A DNA stretch of 61,329 bases, counting the filler, from Hausera hauseri (Eukaryota): the NCBI GenBank assembly GCA_046269625.1. It is 12 parts of 12 records of this genome, joined end to end, with 100 filler letters (N's around TTAATTAATTAA, not from the genome) between each part and the next. Parts side by side here need not be neighbours in the genome. Positions count along the whole stretch, not along the records: positions 6,559 to 13,786 come from JBJURY010029449.1; 11 more parts are not named here. One strand, 5' to 3'. A program made the position numbers and the translations under genes. The notes below the pieces were generated by a model. It was not told where the DNA came from. It saw nothing but the letters and a program-made list of their open reading frames with translations, and did not search any database. This document shows, in pieces, positions 6,559-61,329 of the stretch (its first letter is position 1; the number at the start of each line of letters is the position of its first letter).

Positions 6559-6618
<60 letters not shown>

Positions 6619-7296
6619 GCTATATAGTACTCTCCCTTCCCTTCCATCCCATTCCCTTCTGGACCTTTGGACGATCAACACCAACGCTCTCTAGTAGTTT
6701 TTTCAAAGTCATGCAAAAGACGACATCGAATCCTTCCACGATCGCGCAAGAGTACTGGAACTGGAATGTCGGAGTTGAAAGCCTGCACAGGATAATGCTT
6801 TGTTAATCACTAGATTGAATTGCTTCCCTGGCCGCCTTGCTCACATGTGGTTCATGGTTGCTTACCAATTGACCCAGGACCCAGATTGCATGCCCAACTG
6901 CTTGGGCTACAAGGACACAATCAATGCCATCAAAAAAGGTAAAATGCATTTGTTAACTTTCTTAATTAACTGCAAGCTATTTTGTTGATTCAATTTAGAT
7001 AGAGAAGGACAAGTTTAACATCCCCGTCCCATTTTCATCTTTCGATACCTTGGGAAACTCAATATAGAGTCTAAATAAACTTGGGCTGTTCACCTGACAG
7101 CCACAAAGGTGAAGTAAGCTCGAGGTAACCGCTTTCTGTCTGTCGATATAAAATAAATTATTACTATACCATCTTAACCTTGGTAATCTGGCAAAAATTC
7201 AGTTAGAGAAACTTTATGTCTTTCAAAATAACATGTTAAGATTTTTTTCTAGTAGTGTCTTCCATCTTCACATAAAACTTGTTAGAAACAATATGC

Positions 7297-8297
7297 CGAC
7301 AGAAGAAGGAAAAATTTTGAAAATGGAAACAAAATGGCGTCGGCTATGTGTGAATGGCCAATGGGCCTGTGGAGCTTGCTAAGGAAACAAAATAGTGGTT
7401 TCATTCCTTTTAGCAGTGAAGAAGGGAAAATTTTGAAAAAGGAAACAAAATGGCGGCGGCTATGTGCGAATGACTAATAGGCCTGCGGAGCTTGCTGGGG
7501 AAACAAAATGGCGGTTTCATTCCTTTTAGCAGTGAAGAAGGGAAAATTTAGAAAAAGGAAACAAAATGGCGGCGGCTCTGTGCGAATAACCAATGGGCCT
7601 GTGGAGCTTGCTGGGGAAACAAAATAGCGGTTTCACCACTTTCAGCAGTGAAGAAGGGAAAATTTTGAAAAAAGGAAACAAAATGGCGGCGGCTCTGTGC
7701 GAATAACCAATGGGCCTGCGGAGCTTGCTGGGGAAACAAAATAGCGGTTTCACCACTTTCAGCAGTGAAGAAGGGAAAATTTTGAAAAAAAGGAAACAAA
7801 ATGGCGGCGGCTCTGTGCGAATAACCAATGGGCCTGCGGAGCTTGCTGGGGAAACAAAATGGCGGTTTCACTACTTTCAGCAGTGAAGAAGGAAAAATTT
7901 TGAAAAAAAGGAAACAAAATGGCGGCGGCTCTGTGCGAATGTCTAATGGGCCTGTGGAGCTTGCTGGGGAAACAAAATGGCGGTTTCATTCCTTTTAGCA
8001 GTGACGAAGGGAAAATTTTGAAAAAGGAAACAAAATGGCGGCGGCTCTGTGCGAATGTCCAATGGGCCTGTGGAGCTTGCTGGGGAAACAAAATGATGGT
8101 TTCATTCCTTTTAGCAGTGAAGAAGGGAAAATTTTGAAAAAAGGAAACAAAATGGCGGCGGCTCTGTGCGAATGACCAATGGGCCTGCGGAGCTTGCTGG
8201 GGAAACAAAATGGCGGTTTCATTCCTTTTAGCAGTGAAGAAGGAAAAATTTTGAGAAAGGAAACAAAATGGCGGCGGCTCTATGTGAATGGCCAATG
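7297..8297. repeat. Tandem repeat, 116-118 bp unit, ~8.5 copies
   Basis: Anchor AGCAGTGA at 7412, 7528, 7644, 7761, 7879, 7997, 8113 and 8230. Each unit has GGAAACAAAAT(G/A)GCGG twice and usually a CCAAT. Confidence 0.95.
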
Positions 8298-8454
8298 TTC
8301 CGAAAAGCATTAAGATACACTTCACTGTGCACTCAATCAATCTCAAAGGTGCTTTTAAGCAACAAAATGGCGGTATTCCCAATGGGCCTGTAGAGTTTGC
8401 TGGGGAAACAAAATGGCGCTTTGACTACCTAATAGAATATAGAGTAATACTACC

Positions 8455-9200
8455 GTGCTGGCCTGTCGTGGTAACAGGCCAGTGGTCCACCAAAGAATAG
8501 GCTTTCCTTTTGCCTTTGACATCCTTCCTAGGACTCCCAGGTTTGGGAGGGGGGGGGGTGACCCTGCTGGCCTGTCATGGGTCCATGGTAACAGGCCGCA
8601 GGTCCACCGGAGCATAGGCTTTCCTTTCCAAAAGACCCTTTGACATCCTTCCTCGGGCTCCCAGGTTTGGGGGCCTGGCATCCATGGGGGGTCTAGGGGG
8701 GTGACCCTGCTGGCCTGGTCCGGCCGCAGGTCCACCGGAACATAGGCTTTCCTTTCGAAAAGGTATGCCTTTGACATCCTTCCTCGGGCTCCCAGGTTTG
8801 GGGGGCCTGGCATCCATGGGGGGTGACCCTGCTGGCCTGTCATGGGCCCATGGTAACAGGCAGCAGGTCCACCGGAGCATAGGCTTTCCTTTCGAAAAGG
8901 TATGCCTTTGACATCCTTCCTCGGGCTCCCAGGTTTGGAGGGTCCTGGCATCCATGGGGGGTCCATCCTGCTGGCACGGGCGTCAGTCGTAGGGCTCCCA
9001 GGTTTGGGGGGGTGACCCTGCTGGCGTGTCATGGGTCCATGGTAACAGACCGCAGGTCCACCGGAGCATAGTCCTTCCTCGGGCTCCCAGGTTTGGAGGG
9101 GCCTGGCATCCATGGGGGGTCCATCCTGCTGGCACGGGCGTCATCCATGGGGGGTCCATCGACCGTCCATCCGTCCGAGGGCTCCCAGGCTTGGGAGGGC
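8455..9200. repeat. GC-rich modular tandem repeat (~120-190 bp variable units)
   Basis: Recurring modules GGTGACCCTGCTGGC, CCATGGTAACAG, GCAGGTCCACCGGAGCATAG and CTCGGGCTCCCAGGTTTGG, about 5 times each. Confidence 0.9.
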
Positions 9201-9419
9201 AGGTCCACCAGAGAAGAGGCAAGGTTTGCCTTGGGTCCAAGCATCCAAGTCCAGCGGGGTTCCTTCGAGGTCCGGCTTCCGCACCCATCTCCTCCTTCCT
9301 GGCCACTGGAACGCAGTTCTCCAAGGAGCGGCTCTTCCATCAGAGGGGATCCACCATCCCTCCATCCAGGGAAAGGCTGATTAAAGTTGGTTGTGAACTG
9401 AATTATATGATATATAAAG

Positions 9420-10781
9420 CTCTTCCGGAATACTGGTGACTGGATTTTTCTATTTCATTTTTCTTCCAGATTTGATTTTTAGTTTAGTAAAACTGTCACA
9501 ATAAGCTTCTAAGTTGCCAAAAAAAATGAGTATGTACTAATTATGCAACAGGGTAAGATACGAGGATATTTTCGTGTTTTTTGCCAGGTCCTCTCAGCAA
9601 TGGGAGGCGAGATTAGGATTTTAGCGCCATCAGCATGTGTCAAAGAGTGCGTCAACCCATCATTAGCAATCCTGGCAGCGAGAGAAGTATATAATAATAC
9701 AAAAATTTAAAAAAATATAAATGCAACCCGTCCATTTGCTATATATTAATAATACAAAGTATAAAAATACCTTTTTATTCGTTGGTTCCGCCCACTGTGC
9801 ACTTGGAAACTGCTACAACGCCCACTCCAGGACAATCGTGTTTATTACCTCTTCCAATACTTTCAAACCCTTCTAGGATGGTGGATTATCAAAAAATATA
9901 AGAAAAATATAAGAAAAAAATATAAAAATATATAAATCCGACAACTTTGGCGCCTAATATTAGAAAAAAATACAAATCCGACACCTTTGGCACCTCGCTG
10001 CACATTGTTACACACTTTACCAGCATAATAATATGTCCAAACCATCCAACATAAACTTTGCTATATATTAATAAAAATATTATAATAAAAAATATGAAAA
10101 AATATATAAAAAATGCTTTTTTTTCAGATTTAATTTTTGGTTCAGAAAAACTCTTCCGGAATACTGGTGACTGGGATTTTCTTTCAGATTTAAATTTTGA
10201 TTTATTTTCAGCTTTCACATTAGGCTTCTAAGTTGCCAAACAGGGTATTTTTGTCTGAGCTGTGAAGAGGGTGTGTTTTTGCCAGGTCCTCTCAGCAATG
10301 GAAGGCGAGATTAGTGTTTTAGCGGCATCAGCAAGTGTCGAAGACGCGTCAACCCATCATTAGCAATCCTGGCAGCGAGAGAAGTATATAATAATACAAA
10401 AATTAAAAAAATATAAATTCGACCCATCCATTTGCTATATATTAATAATACAAAGTATAAAAAATACCTTTTTATTCGTTGGTTCCGCCCACTGTGCACT
10501 TGGAAACTGCTACAACGCCCACTCCAGAACAATCGTGTTTATTACCTCTTCCAATACTTTCAAACCCTTCTAGGATGGTGGATTATCAAAAAATATAAGA
10601 AAAATNNNNNNNNNNNNNNNNNNNNNNNNNNNNNNNNNNNNNNNNNNNNNNNNNNNNNNNNNNNNNNNNNNNNNNNNNNNNNNNNNNNNNNNNNNNNNNN
10701 NNNNNAAATGCTTTTTTTTCAGATTTAATTTTTGGTTCAGAAAAACTCTTCCGGAATACTGGTGACTGGGATTTTCTTTCA
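9420..10781. repeat. ~0.7-kb tandem duplication, collapsed at an assembly gap
   Basis: CTCTTCCGGAATACTGGTGACTGG at ~9420, ~10151 and ~10747. The segment 9581-9907 is nearly identical to 10279-10605. Confidence 0.9.
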
Positions 10782-10796
10782 GGTACATTGAAAACA

Positions 10797-11210
10797 TTAA
10801 TCTAATGACTGGATTAAATCAACACCTGAGGGAGATTGGGTATCTATCTATCATCAAGTCATCCATTGTACTGTCTAGCCGTGGTTCATCTTCTATGCTG
10901 AGTTGGCAAAGATTTAAGATACACTGATTTTTTCAAAGCTGATTTTTTCAAAGCTGATTTTCCATTGCTGTACGTCGGTTTCAATTTTCAAACCATGCCT
11001 GTTTTATCACATATGAGAAGCAGAACAGATTTGACTTTCAGTTTCTGAGTACAGACCCAATATTTCTTCTTAAAAATCTGTGATATATCAACTGGAATTG
11101 CACATAACTCAACAACTGGTTTCATGATAGTTTGAGGTGACAAGACTGGATTAAATCAACACCTGAGGGAGATTTGGGTATCTGTCATCAAGTCATCCAT
11201 TGTACTATCT
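10797..11210. repeat. Intergenic repeat module, also present at ~12560-12972
   Basis: Shared blocks GACTGGATTAAATCAACACCTGAGGG, AAGATACACTGATTTTTT and GAACAGATTTGACTTTCAGTTTC. Confidence 0.85.
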
Positions 11211-11385
11211 ATCCAGTGCGGATAAAGATTTCAGCACCGATACAAAAAAAATGTTTTACCCAACCTTGGATCAAACACATTCATTTTTCACTTTACATTT
11301 TGGATTGATTTTTTTTTTCTTTTCCCTGATCCAACATTGATTCCAAGATATTCTTTTTTTTTTTAAAAAAAAAAAATCTTTCTCC

Positions 11386-11453
11386 CGCGCATTCCCTTTT
11401 GCGCAGCGGCAGCGGGCTATAAAAGCGCGCCGCGAATCCCTTTCCTCTCATTC
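11386..11453 (+). promoter_or_regulatory. Core promoter of array gene 1
   Basis: CGCGCA...TGCGCA, then TATAAAAG at 11418-11425 and Inr-like TCATTC at 11448. Same layout as genes 2 and 3. Confidence 0.65.
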
Positions 11454-11478
11454 TCATTCTCGCACTCTCCGCATCCAG

Positions 11479-11820
11479 ATGTCCCGCGACTACGTGTCCG
11501 AATACTTGGCCGCCCACTTCCCTCACATCCAACGGACCCATGAAGAAAACGTACGATTCTTCAACAGCCTGGACCACGACTGGCCGGTCCCCCCCCGCCC
11601 GGGCGAGACTCTCTGGGAGGGTATCCGTCGGCGGTCAGCCAACATCCGAGAGCGGGTGCACCGCCACTTTTACCCCGAGGACTTTCCCGTAGACGACCCC
11701 CGTCCTCGACCCGCAGGCGCACCCCCTCCATATCCGTCCTCGCCCGCACCGCCTCCCACCGAGTTGGCGTACGTCACGCAGGGGGGCCGGAGGATCCTTT
11801 TCCGGATGCGGCGAGAGTGA
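11479..11820 (+). CDS. Array gene 1: 113-aa proline-rich protein with PPPY and conserved C-terminus
   Basis: Intact GC-rich ORF after TATA/Inr. C-terminus LAYVTQGGRRILFRMRRE aligns with genes 2 and 3. Confidence 0.7.
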   Translation: MSRDYVSEYLAAHFPHIQRTHEENVRFFNSLDHDWPVPPRPGETLWEGIRRRSANIRERVHRHFYPEDFPVDDPRPRPAGAPPPYPSSPAPPPTELAYVTQGGRRILFRMRRE

Positions 11821-11848
11821 TCACCCATGGTTTTAAAAAAAAAAAATT

Positions 11849-11908
11849 AAAAAAAGCCCAAAGAGAAGGGTCCCTCGGAGGAGGGATTCTTCTCTTTGGG
11901 CTTTTTTT
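11849..11908 (+). other. 3' hairpin 1: 28-bp stem, GGAG loop
   Basis: Arms 11849-11876 and 11881-11908 pair fully when two G-U pairs are allowed (plus-strand RNA only). Ends in a T run. Confidence 0.85.
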
Positions 11909-12050
11909 TGTGTTTTACACAGACCCAACGTTGGAAAACATAATTTCACACACTGCTCTCGTGTCGATAAATATTTTTTCGATGCAAAAAAAAATGTTTT
12001 TTCACCCAACGTTGGAAAAAAAAAGATCCTTTCACACGCGGCTCGGCTCC

Positions 12051-12117
12051 CGCGCACGTGCATCTGCGCAAGGCTTCCCCTATAAATAGCGGACCCACAC
12101 AGCCAGCGAGATTCATT
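12051..12117 (+). promoter_or_regulatory. Core promoter of array gene 2
   Basis: CGCGCA...TGCGCA, TATAAATA at 12081-12088, TCATT at 12113, GCCATG start context. Confidence 0.65.
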
Positions 12118-12129
12118 TTCTCTCTCGCC

Positions 12130-12375
12130 ATGTCCCAGTCAACACCTCCACCACCCGACGCAGAGAGGACGCTCCCGCCGGGTCCTCGCTGGATCCCTGG
12201 ACCCCGATGTCGGATCAGACGGAGGAGGAGCAGGGTGAGGCGGAGGTTGTTGGAGTCTCCGCCGGCCTACCAACTCCCGGACCTCCCGATCCTGTTGGAG
12301 AACTGGGATCTCGAAGAGATCGTAGTCCTCACCCCGACGGGGGAGAGAATTGTCTTTCGCCGAGTGCGAGAGTAA
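12130..12375 (+). CDS. Array gene 2: 81-aa protein MSQSTPPPP...VRRRLLESPPAY...IVVLTPTGERIVFRRVRE
   Basis: ATG in GCCATG context downstream of TATA/Inr. Clear paralog of gene 3. Confidence 0.75.
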   Translation: MSQSTPPPPDAERTLPPGPRWIPGPRCRIRRRRSRVRRRLLESPPAYQLPDLPILLENWDLEEIVVLTPTGERIVFRRVRE

Positions 12376-12415
12376 GTAACCCTCACTCTAATCGATCCGT
12401 AGCGATGTGAGGGGG

Positions 12416-12471
12416 AAAAATGGCTTAAAGAAAGGACGAAAGGGGGTCCGTCCTTTCTTTAAGCCATTTTT
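12416..12471 (+). other. 3' hairpin 2: perfect 23-bp stem, 10-nt loop
   Basis: AAAAATGGCTTAAAGAAAGGACG / CGTCCTTTCTTTAAGCCATTTTT, preceded by a smaller CCCTCAC...GTGAGGG stem. Confidence 0.9.
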
Positions 12472-13127
12472 TTTGGGTAGCGTGACGGACCAACGTTGGA
12501 AGTTCCCATTAGAAATCGACTCGATTTTGTTTATTTTTTAATTTGGATGAAATAGATTTCTTAGTCATCAATTGTACTGTCCAGCTTAAGATACACTGAT
12601 TTTTTTCAAAGCTGTCTGAAAAAAATTGATTTTCCATTGTTGTACGTTGTTTAAGTTCTCAATTTCAAATCACATATGAGAAGCAGAACAGATTTGACTT
12701 TCAGTTTCCGAGCACAGAGCCAATATTTCTTCTTAAAAAATCTGTGATGTGGAGTTGTACATAACTCAACAACTGGTTTCATGATAGTTTGAGATGGCTC
12801 TAACAAATGCCCACATTGATCTAATGACTGGATTAAATCAACACCTGAGGGTATCGGTCATCAATTGTACTGTCCAGCCGTGGTTCATCTTCTATGCTGA
12901 GTTGGCAAAGATTTAAGATACACTGATTTTTTTCAAAGCTGTGAGAAACAGAACAGATTTGACTTTCAGTTTCGGAGGAGGGATTTCTTCTCTTTGGGCC
13001 TTTTTTTTTGTGTCTCACGCAGACCCAACGTTGGAAACGTCCTTTGACACACTGCTCTCGGATCCGATCCCCCCCAAAAAAAAATGTTTTTTTTTTACCC
13101 AACGTTGGAAAGAAACATAAAATCCAC

Positions 13128-13193
13128 CGCGCACTCCCGTCTGCGCAGCGCTTCCTCTATAAAGAGCGGACCCACACAGCCAGCGAGATCATT
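13128..13193 (+). promoter_or_regulatory. Core promoter of array gene 3
   Basis: CGCGCA...TGCGCA, TATAAAGA at 13158-13165, TCATT at 13189. Confidence 0.65.
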
Positions 13194-13205
13194 TTCTCTC
13201 TCGCC

Positions 13206-13511
13206 ATGTCCCAGTCAACACCTCCTCCTCCATCCGACGCAGAGATGACGACCGACGCGGAGATGACGACCCCGCCGGGTCCCCGCCCGGTCCCTTCCCC
13301 ACCCCTCCCTCGGCTTCGGATCCCCGAGCGCCACGTCCCGAGGAGGAGCGGCGTGAGGCGGCGGCTGTTCGAGTCCCCGCCGACCTACCAGCCCCCGCCG
13401 GCCTACGAGCCCCCGGACCTCCCAACCCTGTTCGAGAGCCGAGATCTCGAAGAGATCGTGCTCGTCACCCGGGCGGGGGAGAGAATCGTCTATCGCCGAG
13501 TGCGAGAGTAA
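13206..13511 (+). CDS. Array gene 3: 101-aa protein MSQSTPPPP...VRRRLFESPPTYQPPPAY...IVLVTRAGERIVYRRVRE
   Basis: Paralog of gene 2. The net length difference is a multiple of three (DAEMTT duplicated, PPxY duplicated). Confidence 0.75.
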   Translation: MSQSTPPPPSDAEMTTDAEMTTPPGPRPVPSPPLPRLRIPERHVPRRSGVRRRLFESPPTYQPPPAYEPPDLPTLFESRDLEEIVLVTRAGERIVYRRVRE

Positions 13512-13551
13512 GTCACCCTCACCCTAATCGATCCGTAGCGACGTGAGGGGG

Positions 13552-13609
13552 AAAAATGGCTCAAAGAAAGGACCGAGGGGGGTCGCGGTCCTTTCTTTGA
13601 GCCATTTTT
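13552..13609 (+). other. 3' hairpin 3: perfect 24-bp stem, 10-nt loop
   Basis: AAAAATGGCTCAAAGAAAGGACCG / CGGTCCTTTCTTTGAGCCATTTTT. Confidence 0.9.
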
Positions 13610-13886
13610 TTTGGGGAGCGCGACGGACCAACGTTGGAAGTAAGTCCCCATTCGAAATCGACAGGATTTTGTTTATTTTTTAATTTGGATATTGATAAAA
13701 AAAAAATATTAATAGAAATATTAATAAAAATATTATAATAATAATAATAAAAATATCATCTTTGGCACCTCACTGCAAAGTTTAGANNNNNNNNNNNNNN
13801 NNNNNNNNNNNNNNNNNNNNNNNNNNNNNNTTAATTAATTAANNNNNNNNNNNNNNNNNNNNNNNNNNNNNNNNNNNNNNNNNNNN

Positions 13887-18519: not shown

Positions 18520-20487
18520 TCAAATAACTCAGTCGAAACGGTAGTACTCAACCCTAAACGAAGGGTTGTACTACCACAGAAAGATATGGAATATAAAATA
18601 TCTGAAATACCGTTCACTTTTCAAAACCCAACCTCTGGATACACTTTACAACGAGGAATTTTGGCATTCCCTTTAACTAATCAAACTATCAGCTCAAAGG
18701 AACGAATTAAATCCGTTATAGAAATCAGACGTAAAAGTTTTGATATGGATGACTTACCAGAGAAAAAACGGACTAAATTGCAAAATCAAATTCTCACAAA
18801 TTTAGAAGAAGATAATAAATATAGAATTAAACATCGATCCTGGAATGAAATGAGCGAAAGAAATTTAATTCAAATTTATGATCCAAGAAGGAATCAATAT
18901 CCGTCAAAGTTTTATTCCAATATGATTGAATTAATGGAAGACTCTAATGATCTCCTTTATCCAGAAAGTAGATATATAGAAAATAAGTTAAAAACTTCTA
19001 CAACCAATGATCGATCATTCAGATTAATCAAGATAGATAAATCTTTGTACAATGTTAGTATGACGGATCTTCTTCAATTCGATCAGGATACCGAGAAAAT
19101 TCTACTACATTTAGCAAAAGGCAAAATACAAATACGTGCTGAGAAAGAAATTTTCCTGGAAAATGCAGCACTAACTGCTAAAAATACCATGAAAATTAAG
19201 TTGGAGGCTCTCCGAACAAAATTTTATTTCCGAGTGTTACTAACCCCAGTATTACTCGGAACAGAAGTATGTAAGATGATGGATCCAAATATGGGTTTCA
19301 AGAAACCCATCTTTTATAAAAAACCAGAAAATAATGTCTCTAACTATAAATTAACAACCATTTCAAATTATCGGTCCCTCGCAGTTACTTTAGCCTATGC
19401 ACCAAATGGCGACCCACTACCAATTGAAGTCATAGCTGCTGATGAGAAGCAACTAATTATTTATCAAGCTTATCTTTCCGCGGAGAAAAATAGGAAATAC
19501 TAACGAGCATATACACGGCCTCTCACAACACATCATTCATGAAGCTCCAGACGAAGACGAAGTCCGAAAAGAATTGATTAAATATTTATATGGCTATATA
19601 ATTATAAGTGCTAACACCAGCACTATCCTTCAGGCTCTCCGTATTCCTAAATCCTTTGTATTTGGTATATTAGACCTATTGGCAACTACGAATACCAAGC
19701 AGAGATTTGCAGAAGAAAAATTAAAGATAAACTTAACGCAACTGCCAACGGTTTATAATTTGTCGTATGAATTCTCTAAAGTAGCCGAACAAATAATCCA
19801 CACTCTGTTCGAAATATATAACAAAATTGATCAATCGTGTTCTAATGAACAATGGAATTTCGACTGGAACCCGCCACTAAATAACTTGATAGATTCCGGT
19901 AGTCTTATGCAAATCTCATCTATCACCTGAGATACAACTACGAAAATATTCAGGTTAACACACCATCTCCAATACAACAAATGAAGGAAAATACTGCCAC
20001 GATACTGACAACATTTCAACAAAATCAAACTAATGATTTCGCTAATTTGTCTATCTTACTATATGGAAGACGAAGTCAGTCCATTAATGTCCAATATACC
20101 ATGAAACCACAATCATCGATTACAAAAAATCGATTAATCATACCAAGCAGTAACTTTGGAAAAGTTTCCGGATTTATCTACAAACATGTAATACACCACA
20201 CATTATATTTGGCACTCATTGGAGCAAATGCAGAAAAAATCAAGGAGTTAGATCACGACACTATCCTTACTACCCAACCAATTCCAGTTCAGTTGGACGA
20301 CGATCCCATTCCTAAACCAAGGAAAAATCGACCCCTTGTTCTCAAGAACGCAAGTAAAACAAAAATACGTATGATCCTATTTGCCAAACAAGACAAATAT
20401 ATCCTTGAGAATCTGTATAGAATGTCAGTTTCAGTCCAATCAGATGAAGAAGCACTCCAGTCAGCCGACATATTGATCCAGATCTAA
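18520..20487 (+). pseudogene. Unassigned intronless ~655-codon frame with two frameshifts (candidate endogenous viral element)
   Basis: Open from the contig edge. ORFs 18586-19503, 19574-19930 and 19981-20487 join through shifts near 19490 and 19900 with no other stops. A-rich coding strand; no family recognised. Confidence 0.5.
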
Positions 20488-22786: not shown

Positions 22787-22899
22787 NNNNNNNNNNNNNN
22801 NNNNNNNNNNNNNNNNNNNNNNNNNNNNNNTTAATTAATTAANNNNNNNNNNNNNNNNNNNNNNNNNNNNNNNNNNNNNNNNNNNNCTTTTATTATGCA

Positions 22900-23385
22900 T
22901 TATATTAGCGTATTGGAGGCAATTTTTACAACGTCGTTAATTGTTCTAATTTTAGTCTTTTTATTGGTCTTTTTCGAACGTCTCTCAAAGGTAGATGATA
23001 TTGTGGTATCAGTATTAGGTTCAGAAGTAGCATTTGACTTGCCAGTATTAGGTCATGTTGCTATAGAGCTTGGTGGTGCTATTTTTATTGGTCTTTTTCG
23101 AGGGTCTCTCATACATAGGGACTGAACAGAAGATGTTGTGGCATCAGCATTAGGTTCGGTAGCGGTATTGGACTTAGTACTAGGTCCTGTTTTTGTAGTA
23201 CTTGCTGATGGTTCTAATGGTGCTGAGGTTTGTTTTTCATCTGTCATTGTACTAATAGTAGCAGCAGTACTTGTAGTAGTGGTATTCGTTACTTGATCAA
23301 AAGCGGCTCGAATTTCTTTTTGTAAAGCAATTAACTGTTTGAATTCTTCACGACTTAGAGATACCAGCCTTCGTAGGGTATTTTA
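22900..23385 (-). pseudogene. PC4/Sub1-like C-terminal fragment followed by a Thr/Ser-rich duplicated tail
   Basis: KYPTKAGIS / LSREEFKQLIALQKEIRAAFDQV across a small deletion. Resembles the PxKKGISLxxEQWxxLxxxxxxIxxA end of the PC4 domain. Confidence 0.5.
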
Positions 23386-23600
23386 TGTAGCTGAAGCAGT
23401 CACTAGTTTCATGGCCCCCAGCGTCTTCACTAGAGCATCCTCACCAGTTATGAACAAGAAGTCGTCGATCTTGATAAATATTTTTTTCGGTGTGTCAGAA
23501 AAACCAAACAAGTTTCTTATATACCGTTATAACCTGTTGAAGCCGGTTTTTATCACGTCATAGTTATTTATAAAACAAATTAAAATTTGTTTTTATGTGG

Positions 23601-24043
23601 TCAAGGTCGGACGAGACGCCAAACGACGCTGTCTTTTGTGTCCTGTCTCGTAGATGTAAAGGGCATAAGGACGCGTTGCATGGATCCCTCACTTACTTTA
23701 ATTATGATAAAATAAATGACGCAGAACCCACGAGTGTTACTAAAACGTCTTGTTGCACGTTATATGTGAATTCTCTGATGGAGTTACATTTAATAAACTC
23801 CTCAATGTTTGCGAACAGCGGTGGAAATCCAAATGAATTGAAATAGTGATATGTACCAACACCGTCCCATAGGGCTACCCAGTGCATACTGGGACAGCTG
23901 GTAGAATCTATATTTACGACGAATGCTGCTAGTTTCATAGGGTCAATTCATTTATGTAGCAATTTGCGAGACAATACTTTGATGGGATGTCGGTGGACGA
24001 AAATATCAGATTGTAGAATTCCATGTATCTGACGAGCCTTCAT
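23601..24043 (-). pseudogene. Maverick adenain-like cysteine protease
   Basis: FVVNIDSTSCPSMHWVALW...YFNSFGFPP...FSNTRGFCVIYFI with one stop and one frameshift. The position of the catalytic Cys appears mutated. Confidence 0.88.
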
Positions 24044-24046
24044 CTT

Positions 24047-25232
24047 TTAAGCGGGGTAATCCATTAACACTTATCTCGTTTTTAAAATTTCAATTATAGA
24101 GTATTATTTGGCTTACACAACAACTTATAAATGATCCAATTTAATTCTAACTAAAGAGGTCCGTTTTTCGCAAATTCAAACTGGCCACCATCGAAAATAC
24201 TGGGACTTAAAACTAGATTCGTTCAAAAAATTCTCTGGCATGATGGTTATTTTCAAAATCCGCCATTAACGGCTTCCCTGTGACCATCCGCCCGGCAACG
24301 GTTATATTTAAATATGTTCAGCGAAAGTGTTGGAACTTGAACAGATTATTTTTGTAAGTACTATTAAAGGCTGTGGAATTAACTATTCCGACATAATGGG
24401 TGTGGGCGTGTGACTGAGGAAAAGGTTGTCTTGAATGTGCAACAACATTCCTCTGGGAATGGACAATGTCTTTGTCACGACTTGTTTGGTGGGGTATTTT
24501 GCGTTCGCTGTAGTCAAGGCTTTTTTGTGGGCTAGAGAAATGGCTGGATTTAATTTGGCTTTCCTGACCACCAGGACGGCGGACGTTATAATTGATTTAT
24601 AACCGAGCGCGGGGTCGTCGGCTATGACGTTGAACGAGTCTTTAGAAGGGGTGAGTTTGATCTTTACGTCCACACCGTTCAGCATTGGGTGAAAATGTCG
24701 CAGTGTAACTTTCCCATCATATCCACTTTTCGACTACCCGCAGCAAACTCACGACGCGTTTTCAGTCCCGCATTTGAATCGGCTTTAGCTTCATCAAACA
24801 ATTTTGGCGTGTTATTGTAGTATAGAGCTACCGTCAGGTGACCCCTTTTGGCTTCGCGACTGTAATTTAAAACGGACTTGAGGTAAGATCTGTAAGGGTG
24901 TGTTTTCACTTGGCGTGATTAACAGGGCCACTTGAGAAAATAAACTGTGCAAATAATTGTTGACCGGGGGCCACTTCAGCACCGTCAGGTAAATTGTCGC
25001 CATTGGCCAAAGCGACTTTGGCTCTCACGTGTACAAGAGTATTAAACAAATCTAGATACTCTTCGCCGTTTCCCGATATTATAAATTCTATGGGTGCCCT
25101 GGGCGCGAGAGAAGCGAGAGGGTGAATTTCTACAAACTGTCCTTCCTCTACCACCGTTTATGTCGGAGGAACGCTAAACAAATCCAAACCTGAATGGAGA
25201 CACTCGCACGAGCCGGGGTGTATCAAAACCAT
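24047..25232 (-). pseudogene. Maverick major capsid protein (hexon/PY)
   Basis: SCECLHSGLDLFSVPPT...PIEFIISGNGEEYLDL...NNYLHSLFSQV...PYRSYLKSVLNY...LNGVDVKIKL, with several frameshifts. Confidence 0.92.
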
Positions 25233-25237
25233 GTCCT

Positions 25238-25713
25238 TTAATCAAAGATGTCTGAATGCTTCTTTCCTCGTCGTTTCTTGGACTCGTTGTGAGAACTGTT
25301 CTGGACGAATGCTGGTTTTATTCTTTTATTAACGGGTTCGCCTGGCGGTGCGGCTTTTCTTATACGACGCATGCCGCCACCCGATTGGTAACCGGTCACG
25401 TGATTCACGGCTCTTTGCAACAGCCTCTGTCTGGCCTCTTTGGCTCGATCTCGGAAGGATTCGCAGACATTTCTACATGTTAATGAGTCCTGGGCCACTT
25501 GCAAACCCATCCCGACTCCTTCCCTGATTATAGCTTTGCCACCTGTCTTTAACCACAGGAGTATCATTCAACCCAACCTACTAAAGAAACTACTGATGCC
25601 TCTTCCGCGTTGACTTCTACTGCCGACAAAAACGGAAATTCCATCTCCTGCTTGACTGCTGCAAAAGTCTTCATAAACTTAGCGCTTCGATGAAAAGGAG
25701 TGCGTCTGACCAT
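25238..25713 (-). pseudogene. Maverick pX/core-like protein
   Basis: QAGDG...QRGRGISSFFSRLG*MILLWLKTGGKAI...QSGGG and a basic tail ending DIFD. Typical position between penton and hexon. Confidence 0.8.
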
Positions 25714-25717
25714 TCTT

Positions 25718-26481
25718 TTATTGCAAATCGGAATGTTTCCTGGGTCGAAAATGTAACGTGACCACTGAGGAACCGTTCATGCATGGGATCTTTTGTCCCA
25801 GGTCGTTGGTTAAAAGCATTTCCACGTTGTCAAAGGAAAATCGACTCAGCGGCAGGTAGTGGGGTTTGTCGTAGATCCGAAACACGGAGGTCAAATTTCT
25901 CACCAAAGTGGGGACCGTCCATAACAAACGCACCATGACATCTCCGACGGGTCTCGCTGCAACGATATCATAGTACACGTACACGTTTCGTATGTTGCTA
26001 TCCAAATTGTCCTGCGCCTTACGCAGTTGAAGATGGTCCTGGTCCGTTATGTAGGTTTTTGACAGTCCCAATATATTTTTCAACTTTTCGCTGATGATAA
26101 CGTCCACCCCCGACTCGAATCTTTCCAGTAAGGTGGTTTTCTGCGTTTTGTGGCAATGGATTTTCAACAGGACTGGATCACCTCCCTTCGCGCGTGAGCT
26201 AAACTATCTGCTTAATTCGTCACAAAGATCCGCCGGCGACTTGTAGTGGCCGCAATTTCAAACGACGGTTTGGTGCCGTTCGCGTGTGGAAGGTAATGTA
26301 ACCACACTTCATTCTCTAAGACATTAAAGTAACTGTTTGGAAATTCAGTCTCCACCAAACCCACTTCGTATTGTGAATTCAAGTCTATGGTTTTCGGGAG
26401 TTTCACGTAAAAATGTTCGGGTCCATTATCCGGAAACGTTTTCATGGAGGCGTTGCTTGGCAGCGTCACGTAAAAACTCAT
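25718..26481 (-). pseudogene. Maverick minor capsid protein (penton)
   Basis: FYVTLPSNASMKTFPDN...YEVGLVE N-terminus and VYVYYDIV..VGD..LL..FDKPHY-like..VVTLHFR C-terminus. Frameshift near 26200. Confidence 0.9.
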
Positions 26482-26734
26482 TATTGTTGCGAGTTTGTCT
26501 TTGGGTTAGGTAACAGATAACCGAGAGAACTACACAGTAAAACTATCCACAACTTGTTGTCCTGGTCGTTGCTTGTTGTCAGATTGAAAAGAGACACACC
26601 GATGATGGTATATATTGCCAAAAGTTGCGAAATAAACACAACTTCGACACGAGGAACAAGTTGACCAAAAAAAAAAAATGTAACGGGTCATCTTTCTATT
26701 CTTTCATTGATGGGAGCGGCTTCTTCGGCCATGG

Positions 26735-27400
26735 CTAGTCTTTATGTCTCGAAATGTGTTTTCCCGAATTCCAGCTGTTGAATGATGAATTATAACAGAA
26801 CCATATCACTAAATATTCTTTGACGTCCGCCGTTCGCCTTTCTCATATGATGCTTTCTATTCTGTAAACTTGTTTGTCTCCGACATTTTGGAGCTCTTCG
26901 TTGTAAAATGAACCTAAACGTTTTTCAACAGTGTCGTCTTTGAGCACATAAGTTATCGGATTCGTCGCGTTTATACGAGACACGGTAAACAATTCTTCCG
27001 TCCATGCCGAACTGTAGTCTTTCTTGAAATTTTGTCTGGACTCTGATGCGGTCTCCTGCCGTAAACGCTTTTCTGCCGACCACGACGATCGATGAGTACA
27101 AATTGTTCCACACCACTACTTGGTTATCAGCGTTTACATCAGCAGGGGCCATGCGAATACTACTGTGATAAGACAGGTTGTAATTTAGAAGGAAACCATG
27201 GATCGCGTCTACGTAGCGAAGACCATTTGTTTTGTTAAAGTATTGTCACAAGTTTTCTTTTAACGTTCGATTAAAGCGCTCCGCGATGGCAGCCTTAATG
27301 TCTTCGTTTTCCGTAGTAAAGAAACGCACGCCTCAGTCTTTGAGAAACTTGAGAAATGTTTTGTTGAGAAATTCGCTGCCTTTGTCGGTCTGTAGCACCA
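26735..27400 (-). pseudogene. Maverick retroviral-like integrase (C-terminal half, with chromodomain-like end)
   Basis: LQTDKGSEFLN...AERFNRTLK...YNLSYHSSIRMAP...WTEELF...GSFYNEELQ...YRIESII. Confidence 0.93.
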
Positions 27401-27403
27401 TAG

Positions 27404-27500
27404 TCTTCATCATCATCATCAGATGCCGTGCTGCGAAGCACAGGCTATCATGGATCTCCACCTCTCGCGATTCCTGGTGTCTCCAATCATCTCTGCTGTT
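27404..27500 (-). mobile_element. 3' end of an RTE-clade LINE with (TGA)n tail
   Basis: TRNRERWRSMIACASQHGI* followed directly by TGA repeats. Abuts the Maverick integrase. Confidence 0.75.
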
Positions 27501-50821: not shown

Positions 50822-51552
50822 AATAGGTCAAACCTGAGACTGTGCAATAATGCTAAAAAGCTAGTTACATATGCTAGTAAGGCCCAGTTTAAAGAGAGCA
50901 TTATTATAGATAATGACTTGGTTGCTGTTCGTCTGGGTAAAGATATGGTCACCTTAGATAGATCTTCATACATTGGTCAGGCCGTACTTCATCTATCCAA
51001 TTTACGGATGTATGAGCTGAATTACATAGAGTTGGAGACATATAGGCACCAGTTTCAGTGTGAACTTAATATCGTTGCCGGTGACACAGACAGTTTTTTA
51101 TTGAATGCCGTGGTATTGATTTGAGATCGTAACTGTTACCAGCAATGATAGCTAATGAACAGCTAGATACATCGAACTATGACAAGAGTGATCAGCTATA
51201 CTCGACTTGCTTCGCAGTTGTAATTGGGAAATTTAAAGACGAAAGTAACGGCTGCGTTCAGTATGAAGAGGGGATTTTTCCACGGCTAAAATCTTATGCA
51301 CTGAAAACCCAAACCAAACCAGTCCTCAAATGTAAGGGCGTAAATCTCAAGCAGACAGACTTGCAGTTCAGTAACTACCTACAAGCATATGAAACCGGTT
51401 GTGAGACCATGGTGAACGAGGAGCAAATTGGCAGCAAAAATCACCATCTTATGACAATCAGTTCAAAGAAGAAAGCGTTGGATCCCTTTGACGACAAACG
51501 GCATTGGATTGAGAAAAACAGATCAGTTGCTTACGGACATTATTGTATTTAA
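50822..51552 (+). pseudogene. Maverick protein-primed PolB, C-terminal part
   Basis: YIGQAVL.LS..MY, DTDS, DTSNY, IGKFKDE, KSY, KCKGV, DDKR...YGHY*. Confidence 0.95.
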
Positions 51553-53383: not shown

Positions 53384-54127
53384 ATGAATACATTTAACCG
53401 TCCATCTTTGTTATTTCAACTGGAACCAAACTGGTGTCAGAATTCACACAATGACATTACCGATGATAATACTAAAAATCCTGATGAACAATGTCAGAAA
53501 GTTTACGAATGGCCGGAACAAATGCCGACACAAACAAATGTCGAAGACTTATCATACAATTGGCAAACCACCAAAACCATTATCAAAAGTCGTATATCCA
53601 TTATGTTTAATAATCAAGCTCTAGCTGATGTTTATTTACTTGTTGGTCGAACTCCAAATGTGCAAAAATTTCCATCTCATCAGTTTATATCAGCTATAAG
53701 TAGCGTAGTTTTTGATGCCATGTTGAAATTCATTTACACTGATGAAATTCATCTCGGACCGGATACGGTGATGACAACTCTATATGCTGCCAAGAAATAC
53801 TCCATTTCAGCATTGGAGAAGGCTTGCGTTGATTATTTGAAAAGGAATTTGTGCAGTGAAAATGCATTTATGCTATTAACGCAAGCAAAAATCATCACTG
53901 TTCATTTCCCGTCATTCGTTGACAACGTTCGAGCCATTTCCGAGATTAATAATACCAGTTCGACTGCAGATGAAATGACAGAAACCAAAACTACTACCGA
54001 TGTTGAAGATGAGAGCTGTGACAGTTTTAAACATAACAATTTAGAAGTGCACAAAATCGTTTCAAAGCAATTTGTATATAAATCTTCAGAACATGAAGAC
54101 AGTATAGACACTCTTGATGGACGATAA
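53384..54127 (+). CDS. BTBD1/2: BTBD1/2-derived chimeric ORF with internally deleted BTB domain
   Basis: YNWQTTK...FNN..LADV...VFDAM|LKFIYTDEI.LGPDTVMTTLYAAKKY...NAFMLLTQA. About 25 aa are missing after FDAM, and the sequence after LLTQAK is unrelated. Confidence 0.8.
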   Translation: MNTFNRPSLLFQLEPNWCQNSHNDITDDNTKNPDEQCQKVYEWPEQMPTQTNVEDLSYNWQTTKTIIKSRISIMFNNQALADVYLLVGRTPNVQKFPSHQFISAISSVVFDAMLKFIYTDEIHLGPDTVMTTLYAAKKYSISALEKACVDYLKRNLCSENAFMLLTQAKIITVHFPSFVDNVRAISEINNTSSTADEMTETKTTTDVEDESCDSFKHNNLEVHKIVSKQFVYKSSEHEDSIDTLDGR

Positions 54128-55018
54128 TAAAATAGTGGAAAATTATGGCGAATTTGTTGAATTTTTTGTTAATTTGGTTTTTAAGCCCAATCTCGAAAAT
54201 TTAGTTATTTCACAAGAAGCGTATAATGTTATGTTTTATTTATTAAGCGACATTTTTGTCTTACCTAGCCCATATAGTGTAAAGACGCATCCCGAATGTA
54301 GTATTTGTCGACCAGCACTGAATAATGTCGACGAACAATTGATTTTGGACTTATTGAATAAATCGTCAATTGATAAAACTTTATTGGCGAGGAAAACCGA
54401 TGTAGATTGGGAGCAATATTTCCGGTTCAGTTACAATGTTGGAATGCGTTACTGTCAGTAACAAACAACTTCGTTTCACACCGTTGTTTGTGGATTTTCG
54501 TAAATTGTTTTTATCGGACTCCGAAATTGCTCAATTTAATGACATTATCTTGCTGAACTCTGAAACTATTTTAAAGTGTTTAAATCTCCACAATCAATCT
54601 ATTAAACAATTTTCATTTGTTTATTTGGATATTTTACGAGTAACAAATAATGCTACGAACGAATTCAATAAAATTGCAAAGTCAATTCTCATTCTACTTT
54701 TCGAACTCAATCCGACACCTGAGTTTATAAAATGTATTACTGGATTTTGTAATACCAAAGATGTATCACAAATCTTTAAAAATGTTGTGATCAGGAGGAA
54801 ATTGGATGTTGATGCATTAAGAATCGTTATATGCGTTCTGCGATGTGCCAAACTGACAAAGTGTAACAAAGTATATTTATTAAATTTAAAACAAGACGAA
54901 AATGCCATCTACTCAATAAATGAAACCCAACGACAAGGTAATTTGCTTGTAAAAAAAATCAATATCAATATGTATATAAAAAATTTTCTGACGCAACTTG
55001 TTTATCAAAAAAGTTCCC
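54114..55018 (+). CDS. Two overlapping unassigned ORFs (54114-54461 and 54436 to contig end), possibly one frameshifted gene
   Basis: Continuous coding-like sequence following the BTB ORF; no family recognised. Confidence 0.35.
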
Positions 55019-55118
55019 NNNNNNNNNNNNNNNNNNNNNNNNNNNNNNNNNNNNNNNNNNNNTTAATTAATTAANNNNNNNNNNNNNNNNNNNNNNNNNN
55101 NNNNNNNNNNNNNNNNNN

Positions 55119-56049: not shown

Positions 56050-57030
56050 ATGCCTCAACCTCAATAAGCACCAGCTGTTCGAAAGCGGATTATTGCACTA
56101 AGCACCCACACCACCAAATCACACTACCAAATTGCTCGAGATCTTAGTTTAACAAACAATTCTGTTTTCAGAATCATCAAACTCTACAAAGAAGTAGGTT
56201 CCACCGCTCCTGGTCTTCATTCAGGTAGACCCAGGTCATCACACCAACCACCGACAGGGTATTCTGTCGTGAAGTGGTACGCAAGCCGTTTATATCTGCT
56301 ACTAAACTGAAGCGTGCCCTCATTCATCTTCTGGATAGAGTTTCTATTAGGACGGTGCAACATTGACTGCAGAAGATGAGCATGCCTTCCCTTAAACCAG
56401 CCAAAAAGCCCCTCATCATTGCAAAGATGTGGCAGAGTCGCCTTCATTTCTGCCGCGAACATCAGCACTAAACAGTTAATGACTAAAAGAAGGTGCTCTT
56501 CAGTGACGAAAGCACTTTCAAGCAACAGGATTGCCTTCCCAAACTCATTGGCTGGACTCCAGGTGCATCTCCACTCGATCTTCGGTATACTGGCAAGACT
56601 GTCAAGCACTCTCCGAGAGTCATGGTGTGGGGATGCTTTGAGTCTCAAGGAGGAGGCGCTCTCATTTCTGGAAAAAGGTAAAAAAAATGAACAACGAGAC
56701 CTACATCGCCATCCTGGAAAGAAAGTTAAACATATCCATGCAGGTGCGGGGTTATAAGACAAAGCACCTTGCCACACCTAAAAACGAACCATGGACTGGT
56801 TTAGAGACAACGGCGTGACGGTACTGTCCTGGCCTGGCAGCAGCCTTGACCTCAACCCTATCGAAAACCTGTGGTCGCAGGTCAAAGTCAAAATTGACTA
56901 CAAGTGCAAGTTTCTTGAGGCGCTCAGACAGGAAGCAAGGCGGGTGTGGTCTCGGGAAACCAGTCTGGAGGAATGTACAAGGATGGTGGAGCTCATCGAG
57001 GATATCGCATCAAATACTAGATGGCTGATG
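56050..57030 (+). mobile_element. Tc1-like transposase remnant
   Basis: SGRPR, KPAKKP, VLFSDESTF, VMVWGCF, DKAPCH, WPGSSLDLNPIENLW, with stops and frameshifts. Confidence 0.93.
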
Positions 57031-57789
57031 CGTTTTTATGATTATACAAGCACTGTACATACATATTTTCATGTAAAAACACATTTTCTGCTAAAGTGAA
57101 TGTGAAAACTGTGAACCAAAGAAGTCAGAAAGCAAAAAGTCAAATATTATTAAATTTGATAAAAGAAACTATCGAAGAAAAGGAAAACACTGCCAAATGA
57201 TACTAATGTCAATAAGACGGCAAAGCAAATAATCAACCAATGATACCTAAATCTTAAAGTGCTCCCGCAAAAGCCGTTTCGTATCACTAGGATTTTGTAC
57301 AGAAAAAGACGTCGTTAATGGATCATGAAAGATTTCATAGTCATTTCCTCCCTGGATCCAAAAAATAGACTATGGGCAATTTAATACAACTACTTCAAAC
57401 GTCTTATCCCCATAAAAACGAATACTTTCAAATTCATCTTTGATATGTCGTAAACAATACGTTTTATTCCATCCGACGGGAAATACGTCAAAACTAATCT
57501 GACCACCTGATAAAACCACCGACATTTCTTTTACCAAAATCAAATAAAATTATTTACCAACGGCAAATGACAATCCGAGATGTCCGAATGTTTCTTTTAA
57601 ATGATCGATCATCGTTTTACGAATATGATTTTTCTGAATGAAAATCGTTTTTCCACAAATTGCAAAAACTGAAACGGAAATCTAGCTCCAAAATACTATC
57701 CTGTCGACAGTAAACCATCGTATTTTCCAAGTCAAACCTCACGTGGTGTGGCTAAGATCTCGCGAAAAAAGTTTGTGGAATTGAAAGAG

Positions 57790-60759: not shown

Positions 60760-61329
60760 GTGGAGATGGATCACATTCTATATGCAGCATTTTTTTGCAT
60801 TTACAACAACGACAGCTAGGCCATTTGCAGGTACTATTGCCATGGTAATGATGCAGCAACGCCAGGCGCGGTCACATACGGAAGAAATAGAGTGACCTCT
60901 TCGCCGGGTTTGAGCACAACAGTCATATAACGTGTAGTTATTATGCCTACAGAAATTTGAGTCAGCAACTGAAACTGTAGAAACGTTTGGTTTTGGCGAG
61001 AAACCACAATCGTTACAGACACAAAGTGAATCACATTTCCATTCATTTTTAGGAATTGCAGCCATTGGAGGTTGTAAACGACATGTGTGAAAACCTTTGT
61101 CGCATATATCACATATGAGCATTTTTCCTCATATTTGCTTTCGCTGCATACAAGGCAAGTTTTACATTCGGCACACTGCCACTCAGCACACACAGTAGGG
61201 TTGATTATGAGTGGTGGTTCAAGACAGTTACTGTATTAGTGTTGATCACAGCTTGTACAATAAATAAGATCATTAATGTCTCCTTTTCGCTCACATAAAG
61301 AACACATACAATGTTCATTTGAAGAATCC
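60760..61329 (-). pseudogene. KMT2C/D: KMT2C/KMT2D (MLL3/4, Lpt-like) PHD-finger cluster
   Basis: CTSCDQH*YSNCL...WQCAECKTC..C...KMLICDICDKGFHT..LQP..WKC...CNDCG...CKKMLHIECD follows the MLL3 PHD motif order. One stop, frameshifts, no introns. Confidence 0.82.

Follow-up and report, generated by a model that had tools for sequence, protein, structure and literature searches.

What are three short, GC-rich open reading frames (ORFs), each with a promoter-like region in front and a long hairpin behind, doing in the AT-rich DNA of Hausera hauseri, and where did they come from? They lie on scaffold JBJURY010029449.1 of assembly GCA_046269625.1, within a stretch of 61,329 nucleotides that was analyzed as a whole and is called the window below. 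It consists of short scaffolds strung together with N44-linker-N44 between them; since these linkers are artificial, the real context of the ORFs is limited to the array scaffold at 6559–13786 (~7.2 kb, with one 100-N gap at 10606–10705). Each ORF is embedded in the same one-gene cassette. The reading that we favor, with a probability of about 40%, is that the cassettes are a small intron-free gene family that was captured from a DNA virus, or from an element resembling one, and was amplified in a ~335 bp repeat, and that they encode WW-binding adaptors. The cassette family is known from one species.

Three Cassettes of One Design

The three ORFs, of 113 amino acids (aa) (gene 1, 11479–11820), 81 aa (gene 2, 12130–12375), and 101 aa (gene 3, 13206–13511), are present on the + strand, as an earlier note on this DNA had stated. 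The three genes share a module consisting of a palindrome, a GCGCA-N8-TGCGC box, a TATA box, an initiator (Inr)-like site, the ORF, a long hairpin, and a second palindrome. The same note had described the order CGCGCA..TGCGCA, TATA, Inr, ATG, ORF, and hairpin, which was confirmed in 3/3 cassettes; the palindrome also occurs upstream, and a remnant of a fourth cassette is present. The module motifs were confined to the array, with none elsewhere in the window. CGCGCA-N8-TGCGCA was found three times, once ahead of each ORF (0.03 expected), and the palindrome CCAACGTTGG, with at most one mismatch, was found seven times, always within 11260–13637 (1.33 expected, 0/100 shuffles).

The palindrome CCAACGTTGG stands ahead of every promoter and also after every hairpin, the upstream copies sitting in an upstream element common to the three cassettes. 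Cassette 1 has its upstream palindrome (one mismatch) at 11260–11269, a promoter-like region at 11386–11453 (+ strand; box 11386–11405, TATAAA at 11418, Inr-like TCATTC at 11448), and a downstream palindrome at 11925–11934. The corresponding features of cassette 2 are at 12006–12015, 12051–12118 (+ strand; box 12051–12070, TATAAA at 12081, TCATTT at 12113), and 12490–12499, and those of cassette 3 at 13099–13108, 13128–13194 (+ strand; box 13128–13147, TATAAA at 13158, TCATTT at 13189), and 13628–13637; the palindromes carry no strand assignment. The distance from TATA to the presumed start is 32–34 nt and the leader is 15–29 nt in the three cassettes, and the paired palindromes between genes are 74–81 nt apart. 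The fourth cassette, of the gene 1 type, is reduced to its 3′ half (12973–13034, + strand), which is broken at the hairpin loop and comprises the loop, the 3′ arm, and the seventh copy of CCAACGTTGG at 13025–13034.

A pattern search of IMG/VR with the promoter pattern returned three loci, none of which (0/3) carried the palindrome; in two of them (L001 and L002), the pattern fell inside phage-like ORFs. The paired-palindrome and palindrome-plus-box patterns gave no matches in the same search, and no description of the cassette layout was found in a search of the largely open-access literature.

Hairpins at the 3′ Ends

Leaving out the N-linkers, the hairpins of gene 1 (11841–11916), gene 2 (12416–12471, 23 bp perfect arms), and gene 3 (13552–13609, 24 bp perfect arms), all given on the + strand, are longer than any other true inverted repeat in the window. 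The z-scores for folding of the sense strand were −8.5, −6.6, and −5.6 for genes 1, 2, and 3, respectively. The hairpins are homologous across the cassettes, with changes on both sides in 8/22 predicted pairs and 0/19 outer pairs broken. The shape of the hairpin is thus conserved by compensatory changes while its sequence drifts. The gene 1 hairpin folds at −53.7 kcal/mol on the sense strand and −47.3 kcal/mol on the antisense strand, and the two G-U pairs of its sense-strand stem favor a sense RNA. The first AWTAAA lies 457 nt past the stop codon in gene 2 and 212 nt past it in gene 3, with none within 200 nt; in gene 1, an ATTAAA is located inside the hairpin arm.

Could the hairpin RNA itself be the functional product, as a microRNA- or siRNA-like precursor of 56–76 nt, with the ORFs as passengers? 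The size and stability of the hairpins, their compensation, and weak matches to microRNA models are consistent with this explanation. However, all 14 Rfam matches fell far under the gathering scores (the highest reached 32.8 bits, the threshold being 80), and the ORFs show constraint of their own. Because the stems are near perfect while the arm sequence varies, what is kept is the shape of the hairpin and not a guide sequence. We therefore consider a hairpin-RNA product very improbable.

Histone genes are tandem, intron-free, and GC3-rich; they have a TATA box, their 5′ leader is very short, and a stem-loop stands at the 3′ end. The cassettes are like replication-dependent histone repeats in this layout. 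A histone gene repeat was nevertheless rejected: Pfam gave no histone domain, the 14 Rfam matches included no histone stem-loop, and the stems here are 23–36 bp.

Signs of Coding Constraint in the Three Reading Frames

The GC content of the ORFs is 0.66, 0.63, and 0.70 (genes 1, 2, and 3), with a third-position value (GC3) of 0.72–0.80 that exceeds the second-position value (GC2), compared with 0.37 for the window, whose CpG ratio of 0.93 points to an invertebrate host. A DNA sequencing run that holds the array (X1; 0.81 of sampled words) contained all three genes as exact matches in contigs at depth 63–168. X1 and the window may come from the same sample, so that X1 is not independent evidence. 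It adds at least two further variants of the gene 1 type and at least two of the gene 2/3 type (depth 14–117), for which alleles could account, and its contigs span cassette 1 to cassette 2 and gene 2 to the ~335 bp repeat. X1 coverage is low at 12968–13195 and across the gene 1 hairpin; such a gap in coverage is no proof of anything, but the junction at 12972 is tentative. No RNA run was among the sequencing runs listed as holding the array. Runs X2–X4 were considered as other species and rejected as carry-over, since their array scraps had depth 2–4 and were mostly letter-identical, compared with a depth of 24–35 for their other contigs. The shares of two further runs, X5 and X6, were 0.06 and 0.05.

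Differences between the array and the X1 variants were listed in part (40 of 73 and 12 of 46). Among those listed for gene 1, 14/24 were at third positions and 13/24 were synonymous (classed by hand), about twice the 28% of sites that are synonymous, a share computed for genes 2 and 3; the p value of ~0.005 for this excess is a hand approximation with differences pooled over contigs. The three listed gene 1 differences in or beside the PPPY codons were all synonymous. The net length changes listed within ORFs were all multiples of three (4/4; −3, +6, −15, and −45), whereas 6/6 of the indels listed outside ORFs were not. On balance, the three ORFs are very probably real protein-coding genes.

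A non-coding composite repeat, with GC-rich parts that are stop-poor by chance and motifs that are accidental, would also yield open frames, since a GC content of 63–70% favors them. Such an explanation draws further on a dN/dS between genes 2 and 3 that is not significantly below 1 and on low language-model recognition scores (1517 and 1625), which by the tool's own account are not decisive on whether a gene is real. In contrast, TATA, Inr, and ATG stand in order in 3/3 cassettes, GC3 exceeds GC2, and the in-frame indels, the synonymous excess, and the likeness of the gene 1 and gene 3 proteins over their last 40 residues all argue for coding. A purely non-coding origin thus appears highly unlikely.

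Motifs and Predicted Structure of the Proteins

The C-terminal motif, the PPxY in all three proteins, and RRRL[LF]ESP in genes 2 and 3 were as the earlier note had described them. The gene 1 product has three predicted helices (residues 3–64), PPPY at 82–85, and the terminal beta-hairpin motif at 95–113. Gene 2 encodes RRRLL (37–41), SPPAY (43–47), and the terminal motif, with RIVF at 73–76, and gene 3 encodes RRRLF (51–55), PPTY (58–61), PPAY (64–67), and a predicted beta-hairpin at 81–99; its PPTY/PPAY pair is an 18-nt tandem duplication at 13375–13415. Genes 1 and 3 align over the last 40 residues only, from PPxY to the end (38% identity, E 0.002). The gene 3 model is unstructured apart from the terminal beta-hairpin (81–99, pLDDT 87), and the gene 1 model (pLDDT 61) shows three helices at 3–64 and the same hairpin at low confidence. 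On this evidence, the family core is PPxY plus a terminal beta-hairpin, to which two different N-terminal parts are joined. The disorder suggested in the earlier note is supported for gene 3 except at its end. A homodimer prediction for residues 62–101 of gene 3 scored 0.15, against a mark of 0.32, which speaks neither for nor against a dimer.

The PPxY is conserved in 3/3 genes, which makes the proteins candidate WW ligands by motif. The RxL upstream of it is confined to genes 2 and 3: their RRLL and RRLF fit the strict cyclin-docking pattern, as checked by eye, and the RxL region of gene 3 is unstructured in the model. Gene 1 does not fit the strict pattern and lacks an RxL ahead of PPxY; it has just a loose match, RILF, which lies inside the hairpin (RIVF/RIVY in the others). 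The SP sits two to three residues after the RxL in genes 2 and 3. Cyclin docking normally serves CDK sites well upstream, with a general minimum distance, and T5, T22, and S31 are for this reason better CDK candidates. The SP beside the RxL is thus probably not the docked CDK site, being too near. A coupling of cyclin-CDK to WW proteins, as once proposed, is possible for genes 2 and 3 but not family-wide. In one example, the docked CDK site lies 17 residues upstream (PMC10846619). RxLF is the favored form of the cyclin-docking motif, yet a large screen found cyclin binding for fewer than 15% of strict RxL matches (PMC12356897). A Cip/Kip-type CDK inhibitor (p21/p27) was rejected, there being no CDI domain, no PDB sequence match, and no match to a Pfam family even with E values of up to 10 allowed.

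The conserved C-terminus may also be read as a PP1-docking RVxF motif, the protein then being a pared-down scaffold of the ASPP2 type, by which PP1 is brought to a WW-domain substrate such as YAP/Yorkie and activates it; this would fit either origin of the cassettes. RIVF of gene 2 and RILF of gene 1 fit the consensus [RK]-X(0,1)-[VI]-{P}-[FW] (10.1101/2022.09.09.507380), and ASPP2 uses PPxY and RVxF in a similar manner (PMC4216074). RIVY of gene 3 falls outside the consensus, however, which arises by chance in about one quarter of proteins (10.1101/2022.09.09.507380), and the residues in question form the second strand of the predicted hairpin, in which the first strand and the turn are conserved as well. 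PP1 docking is accordingly an improbable account. ASPP2-type scaffolds and NEDD4 PPxY adaptors resemble the cassette proteins in having PPxY in a disordered chain plus a second docking element (PMC4216074), whereas the cassette proteins are shorter than 115 residues and lack ankyrin, SH3, or other Pfam domains, with the RVxF consensus in 2/3.

Searches for Relatives

The proteins belong to no named family that could be recognized, in agreement with the earlier note: Pfam gave no family for the six scaffold ORFs tested, PHROGs gave no match for the family proteins, and HMMER gave no true match. A word-indexed protein search returned 0/54 candidates for gene 3 and 0/12 for gene 1, and the same search among longer proteins (0/8000) is weak evidence. 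There was no match among PDB sequences and none in metagenomes (0/596), and ESM Atlas was blank, which shows neither novelty nor absence. Foldseek gave no match at E up to 0.001 for the gene 1 model and likewise none for gene 3, the top row for the latter being an E4 at E 0.25. The best Z in the fold comparison of gene 1 was 5.8 (rmsd 2.9, 64 aligned), within background. Novelty of a fold cannot be read from weak or absent matches, and all of these homology negatives are limited by the difficulty of searching with short proteins of low complexity.

The E4 gene of papillomaviruses, which infect vertebrates, is spliced and overlaps E2, whereas the cassettes are free-standing. E1^E4 is alike in outline, being a small, largely unstructured protein that binds cyclin-CDK and multimerizes (PMC5371391), but the Foldseek value was obtained on a mostly unstructured model and is not significant, and Pfam gave no E4 match.

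Origin of the Cassettes

We favor viral capture on two grounds: uniform modules of one gene each, ending in a hairpin and yielding motif-only products, are a viral design, and orphan status fits an unsampled virus. The viral or transposon origin suggested in the earlier note stays an inference, as the array scaffold offers no proof of it. A 3′ hairpin, as in Nucleocytoviricota, is present in 3/3 genes, and genes 2 and 3 have no AWTAAA within 200 nt. Invertebrate iridoviruses have hairpins without poly(A) signals that were proposed as terminators (PMC5923455), and hairpins set the 3′ ends of transcripts in Mimiviridae (PMC4402537). The cassettes share with these viruses compact intron-free genes, a long end hairpin, and the lack of a nearby poly(A) signal. 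They differ in having TATA/Inr promoters and two-sided palindromes, in hairpins without CATTA/TAATG arms, and in that no viral core gene or sequence relative was found by IMG/VR and HMMER.

Several results weigh against one part or another of the favored reading. The TATA/Inr promoters are host-like and not iridovirus-like (AAAAT motif, PMC5923455). No core gene (capsid, polymerase B, packaging ATPase, or D5) was recognized on the 7.2 kb scaffold, which is too short to decide, and IMG/VR by sequence gave 0/128 and 0/20 stretches. A full HMMER search of 1.84 billion representatives gave two matches, a helical-repeat protein and a tandem-repeat ORF, both of which were rejected as repeat artefacts. 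The antisense strand of the gene 3 hairpin folds as well as the sense strand, and the hairpin could therefore be kept at the DNA level. PPxY is short and easily arises in proline-rich sequence. The comparison of genes 2 and 3 that the earlier note had called for gave a dN/dS of 0.55, which is below 1 but not significant (Fisher p 0.07). Only 1/7 of the differences listed for a gene 3 variant in X1 was synonymous (three of the seven may stem from aligning one repeat unit on two), and frame-breaking copies may hide among the differences beyond those listed.

The ~335 bp AT-rich repeat lies to the left of cassette 1 (10794–11214, ~1.3 copies) and again at 12551–12972 with more copies, neither placed on a strand, and the order along the array is repeat, gene 1, gene 2, repeat, gene 1 remnant, and gene 3. 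Amplification of the cassettes was likely brought about by recombination in this surrounding repeat. One X1 contig (depth 6.4) joins 11976, after cassette 1, back to 11244 in the cassette 1 upstream element. Other cassette orders may exist. A 2-kb tandem unit, considered from an X1 joint of 12850 to 10845, is not proven, as the joint falls in the ~335 bp repeat.

The same arrangement would suit a host-born selfish or ampliconic family, either a germ-line driver or a toxin-antidote pair of gene 1 with gene 2/3, that spreads between satellite blocks in a Dox-like manner and acts in the germ line via short motifs. The flanking repeat, the pairing of gene 1 with gene 2/3 that occurs twice (the second gene 1 being a remnant), and the multi-variant, orphan state of the cassettes point this way, and each of the 29 copies of Dox has 359 repeats on its flanks (10.1101/2021.08.05.454923). 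Members of the Dox superfamily, with the 359 bp satellite of the Drosophila simulans clade, are likewise small, young, multi-copy genes, with a similar repeat unit length. On the other hand, Dox genes are chimeras of recognizable host genes, with an HMG/protamine-derived domain and multi-exon transcripts (10.1101/2021.08.05.454923). No parent gene was found here, neither of these two features was seen in the cassettes, and only the repeat-flanked layout is common to both. A host-born family also leaves the compensated 3′ hairpin and the two-sided palindromes unexplained, and we regard it as rather unlikely, though second only to viral capture.

Closely paired palindromes recall viral enhancer repeats. 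The 74–81 nt pairs between genes, the short and unplaced scaffold, and the exact-match X1 contigs (depth 49–168) would therefore be expected if the array were not integrated but part of a co-sequenced virus or symbiont genome, with the repeats as its own origin or enhancer repeats. This appears unlikely, since the scaffold continues into 116 bp, 137 bp, and ~697 bp repeats (the 100-N gap weakens the link to the first two), and the summed depth of the spacer repeat reaches 865, compared with 63–480 for the genes, as for a dispersed host repeat.

A link to a Maverick could not be made on the array scaffold: the module is missing from the Maverick-like remnants of the window, all of which belong to different scaffolds. 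Among these is a remnant of a protein-primed polymerase B (44139–44540, PF03175, E 0.00018), a point of comparison with Maverick/Polinton elements. No polymerase B, integrase, capsid, or protease between terminal inverted repeats was found on 6559–13786, the remnants elsewhere being separated by artificial linkers; ORF calls and Pfam gave no recognized mobile-element gene on the 7-kb array scaffold, and no comparable hairpin, box, or palindrome was found on the Maverick-like scaffolds of the window.

Proposed Mechanism

Under the favored reading of a captured viral gene family, RNA polymerase II would start ~32–34 nt past the TATA box with the aid of a dimeric factor that binds the GCGCA-N8-TGCGC box; a further factor may act at the flanking palindromes. 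As in those large DNA viruses whose transcripts terminate at hairpins, the 3′ end would be set at the long hairpin, and not at an AATAAA close by. The resulting protein could present its PPxY to a NEDD4-type ligase or to YAP/Yorkie, and the conserved terminal beta-hairpin may bind a second partner, which would then be brought to the WW protein. The N-terminal part would set the cargo: in gene 1 this is the helical part, whereas genes 2 and 3 have an RxL segment for cyclin docking, preceded by T/S-P sites.

A bolder version is an animal gene-cassette system, made of one-gene modules with their own promoter, each framed by two copies of one palindromic site in a set orientation. The hairpin would end the transcript without a poly(A) signal, recombination at the sites would shuffle and stack modules in the fashion of integrons, and the products would be interchangeable motif-only effectors that rewire WW-domain, cyclin, and phosphatase signaling. 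We consider such a system a long shot.

Other Features of the Window

The remainder of the array scaffold consists of satellites, a ~697 bp repeat, and the ~335 bp repeat. The 116 bp satellite (8.5 copies) is located at 7302–8297 and the 137 bp satellite (3.1 copies) at 8553–8975, and both contain what we take to be YY1-like and RFX-like words.

Maverick-like remnants are spread over three scaffolds at 44139–51552. Fragmented minus-strand ORFs at 22887–27500, which gave no significant Pfam match, are presumably a decayed Maverick with, in this order, integrase-like, penton-like, core, capsid-like, and cysteine-protease-like parts. AT-rich DNA at 18586–20487 holds two ORFs that are long and intact (305 and 168 aa), gave no Pfam or significant PHROGs match, and are possibly viral. 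An intron-free BTB-BACK fragment at 53384–55017 (Pfam, E 9e-12), possibly a retrocopy or captured gene, adjoins two ORFs without assignment (54117–54461, + strand; 54436–55074, − strand). A DDE_3 (Tc1-type) transposase fragment (56791–57099, E 2.4e-05) and a PHD finger remnant nearest to MLL3/KMT2D (60778–61122) were also detected. The BTB-BACK, polymerase B, and PHD finger sequences together mark the host as an animal.

Implications

No match to the protein family or to its gene layout came from any library searched, but the frames and hairpins alike bear signs of constraint. If the cassettes are viral, they would represent an unsampled lineage of invertebrate DNA viruses with a minimal, motif-only effector design; if host-born, they would be a candidate selfish gene family outside Drosophila. 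With either origin, the locus offers a direct test of whether, in a non-histone animal gene transcribed by RNA polymerase II, a long hairpin can serve as the end in place of a poly(A) signal.

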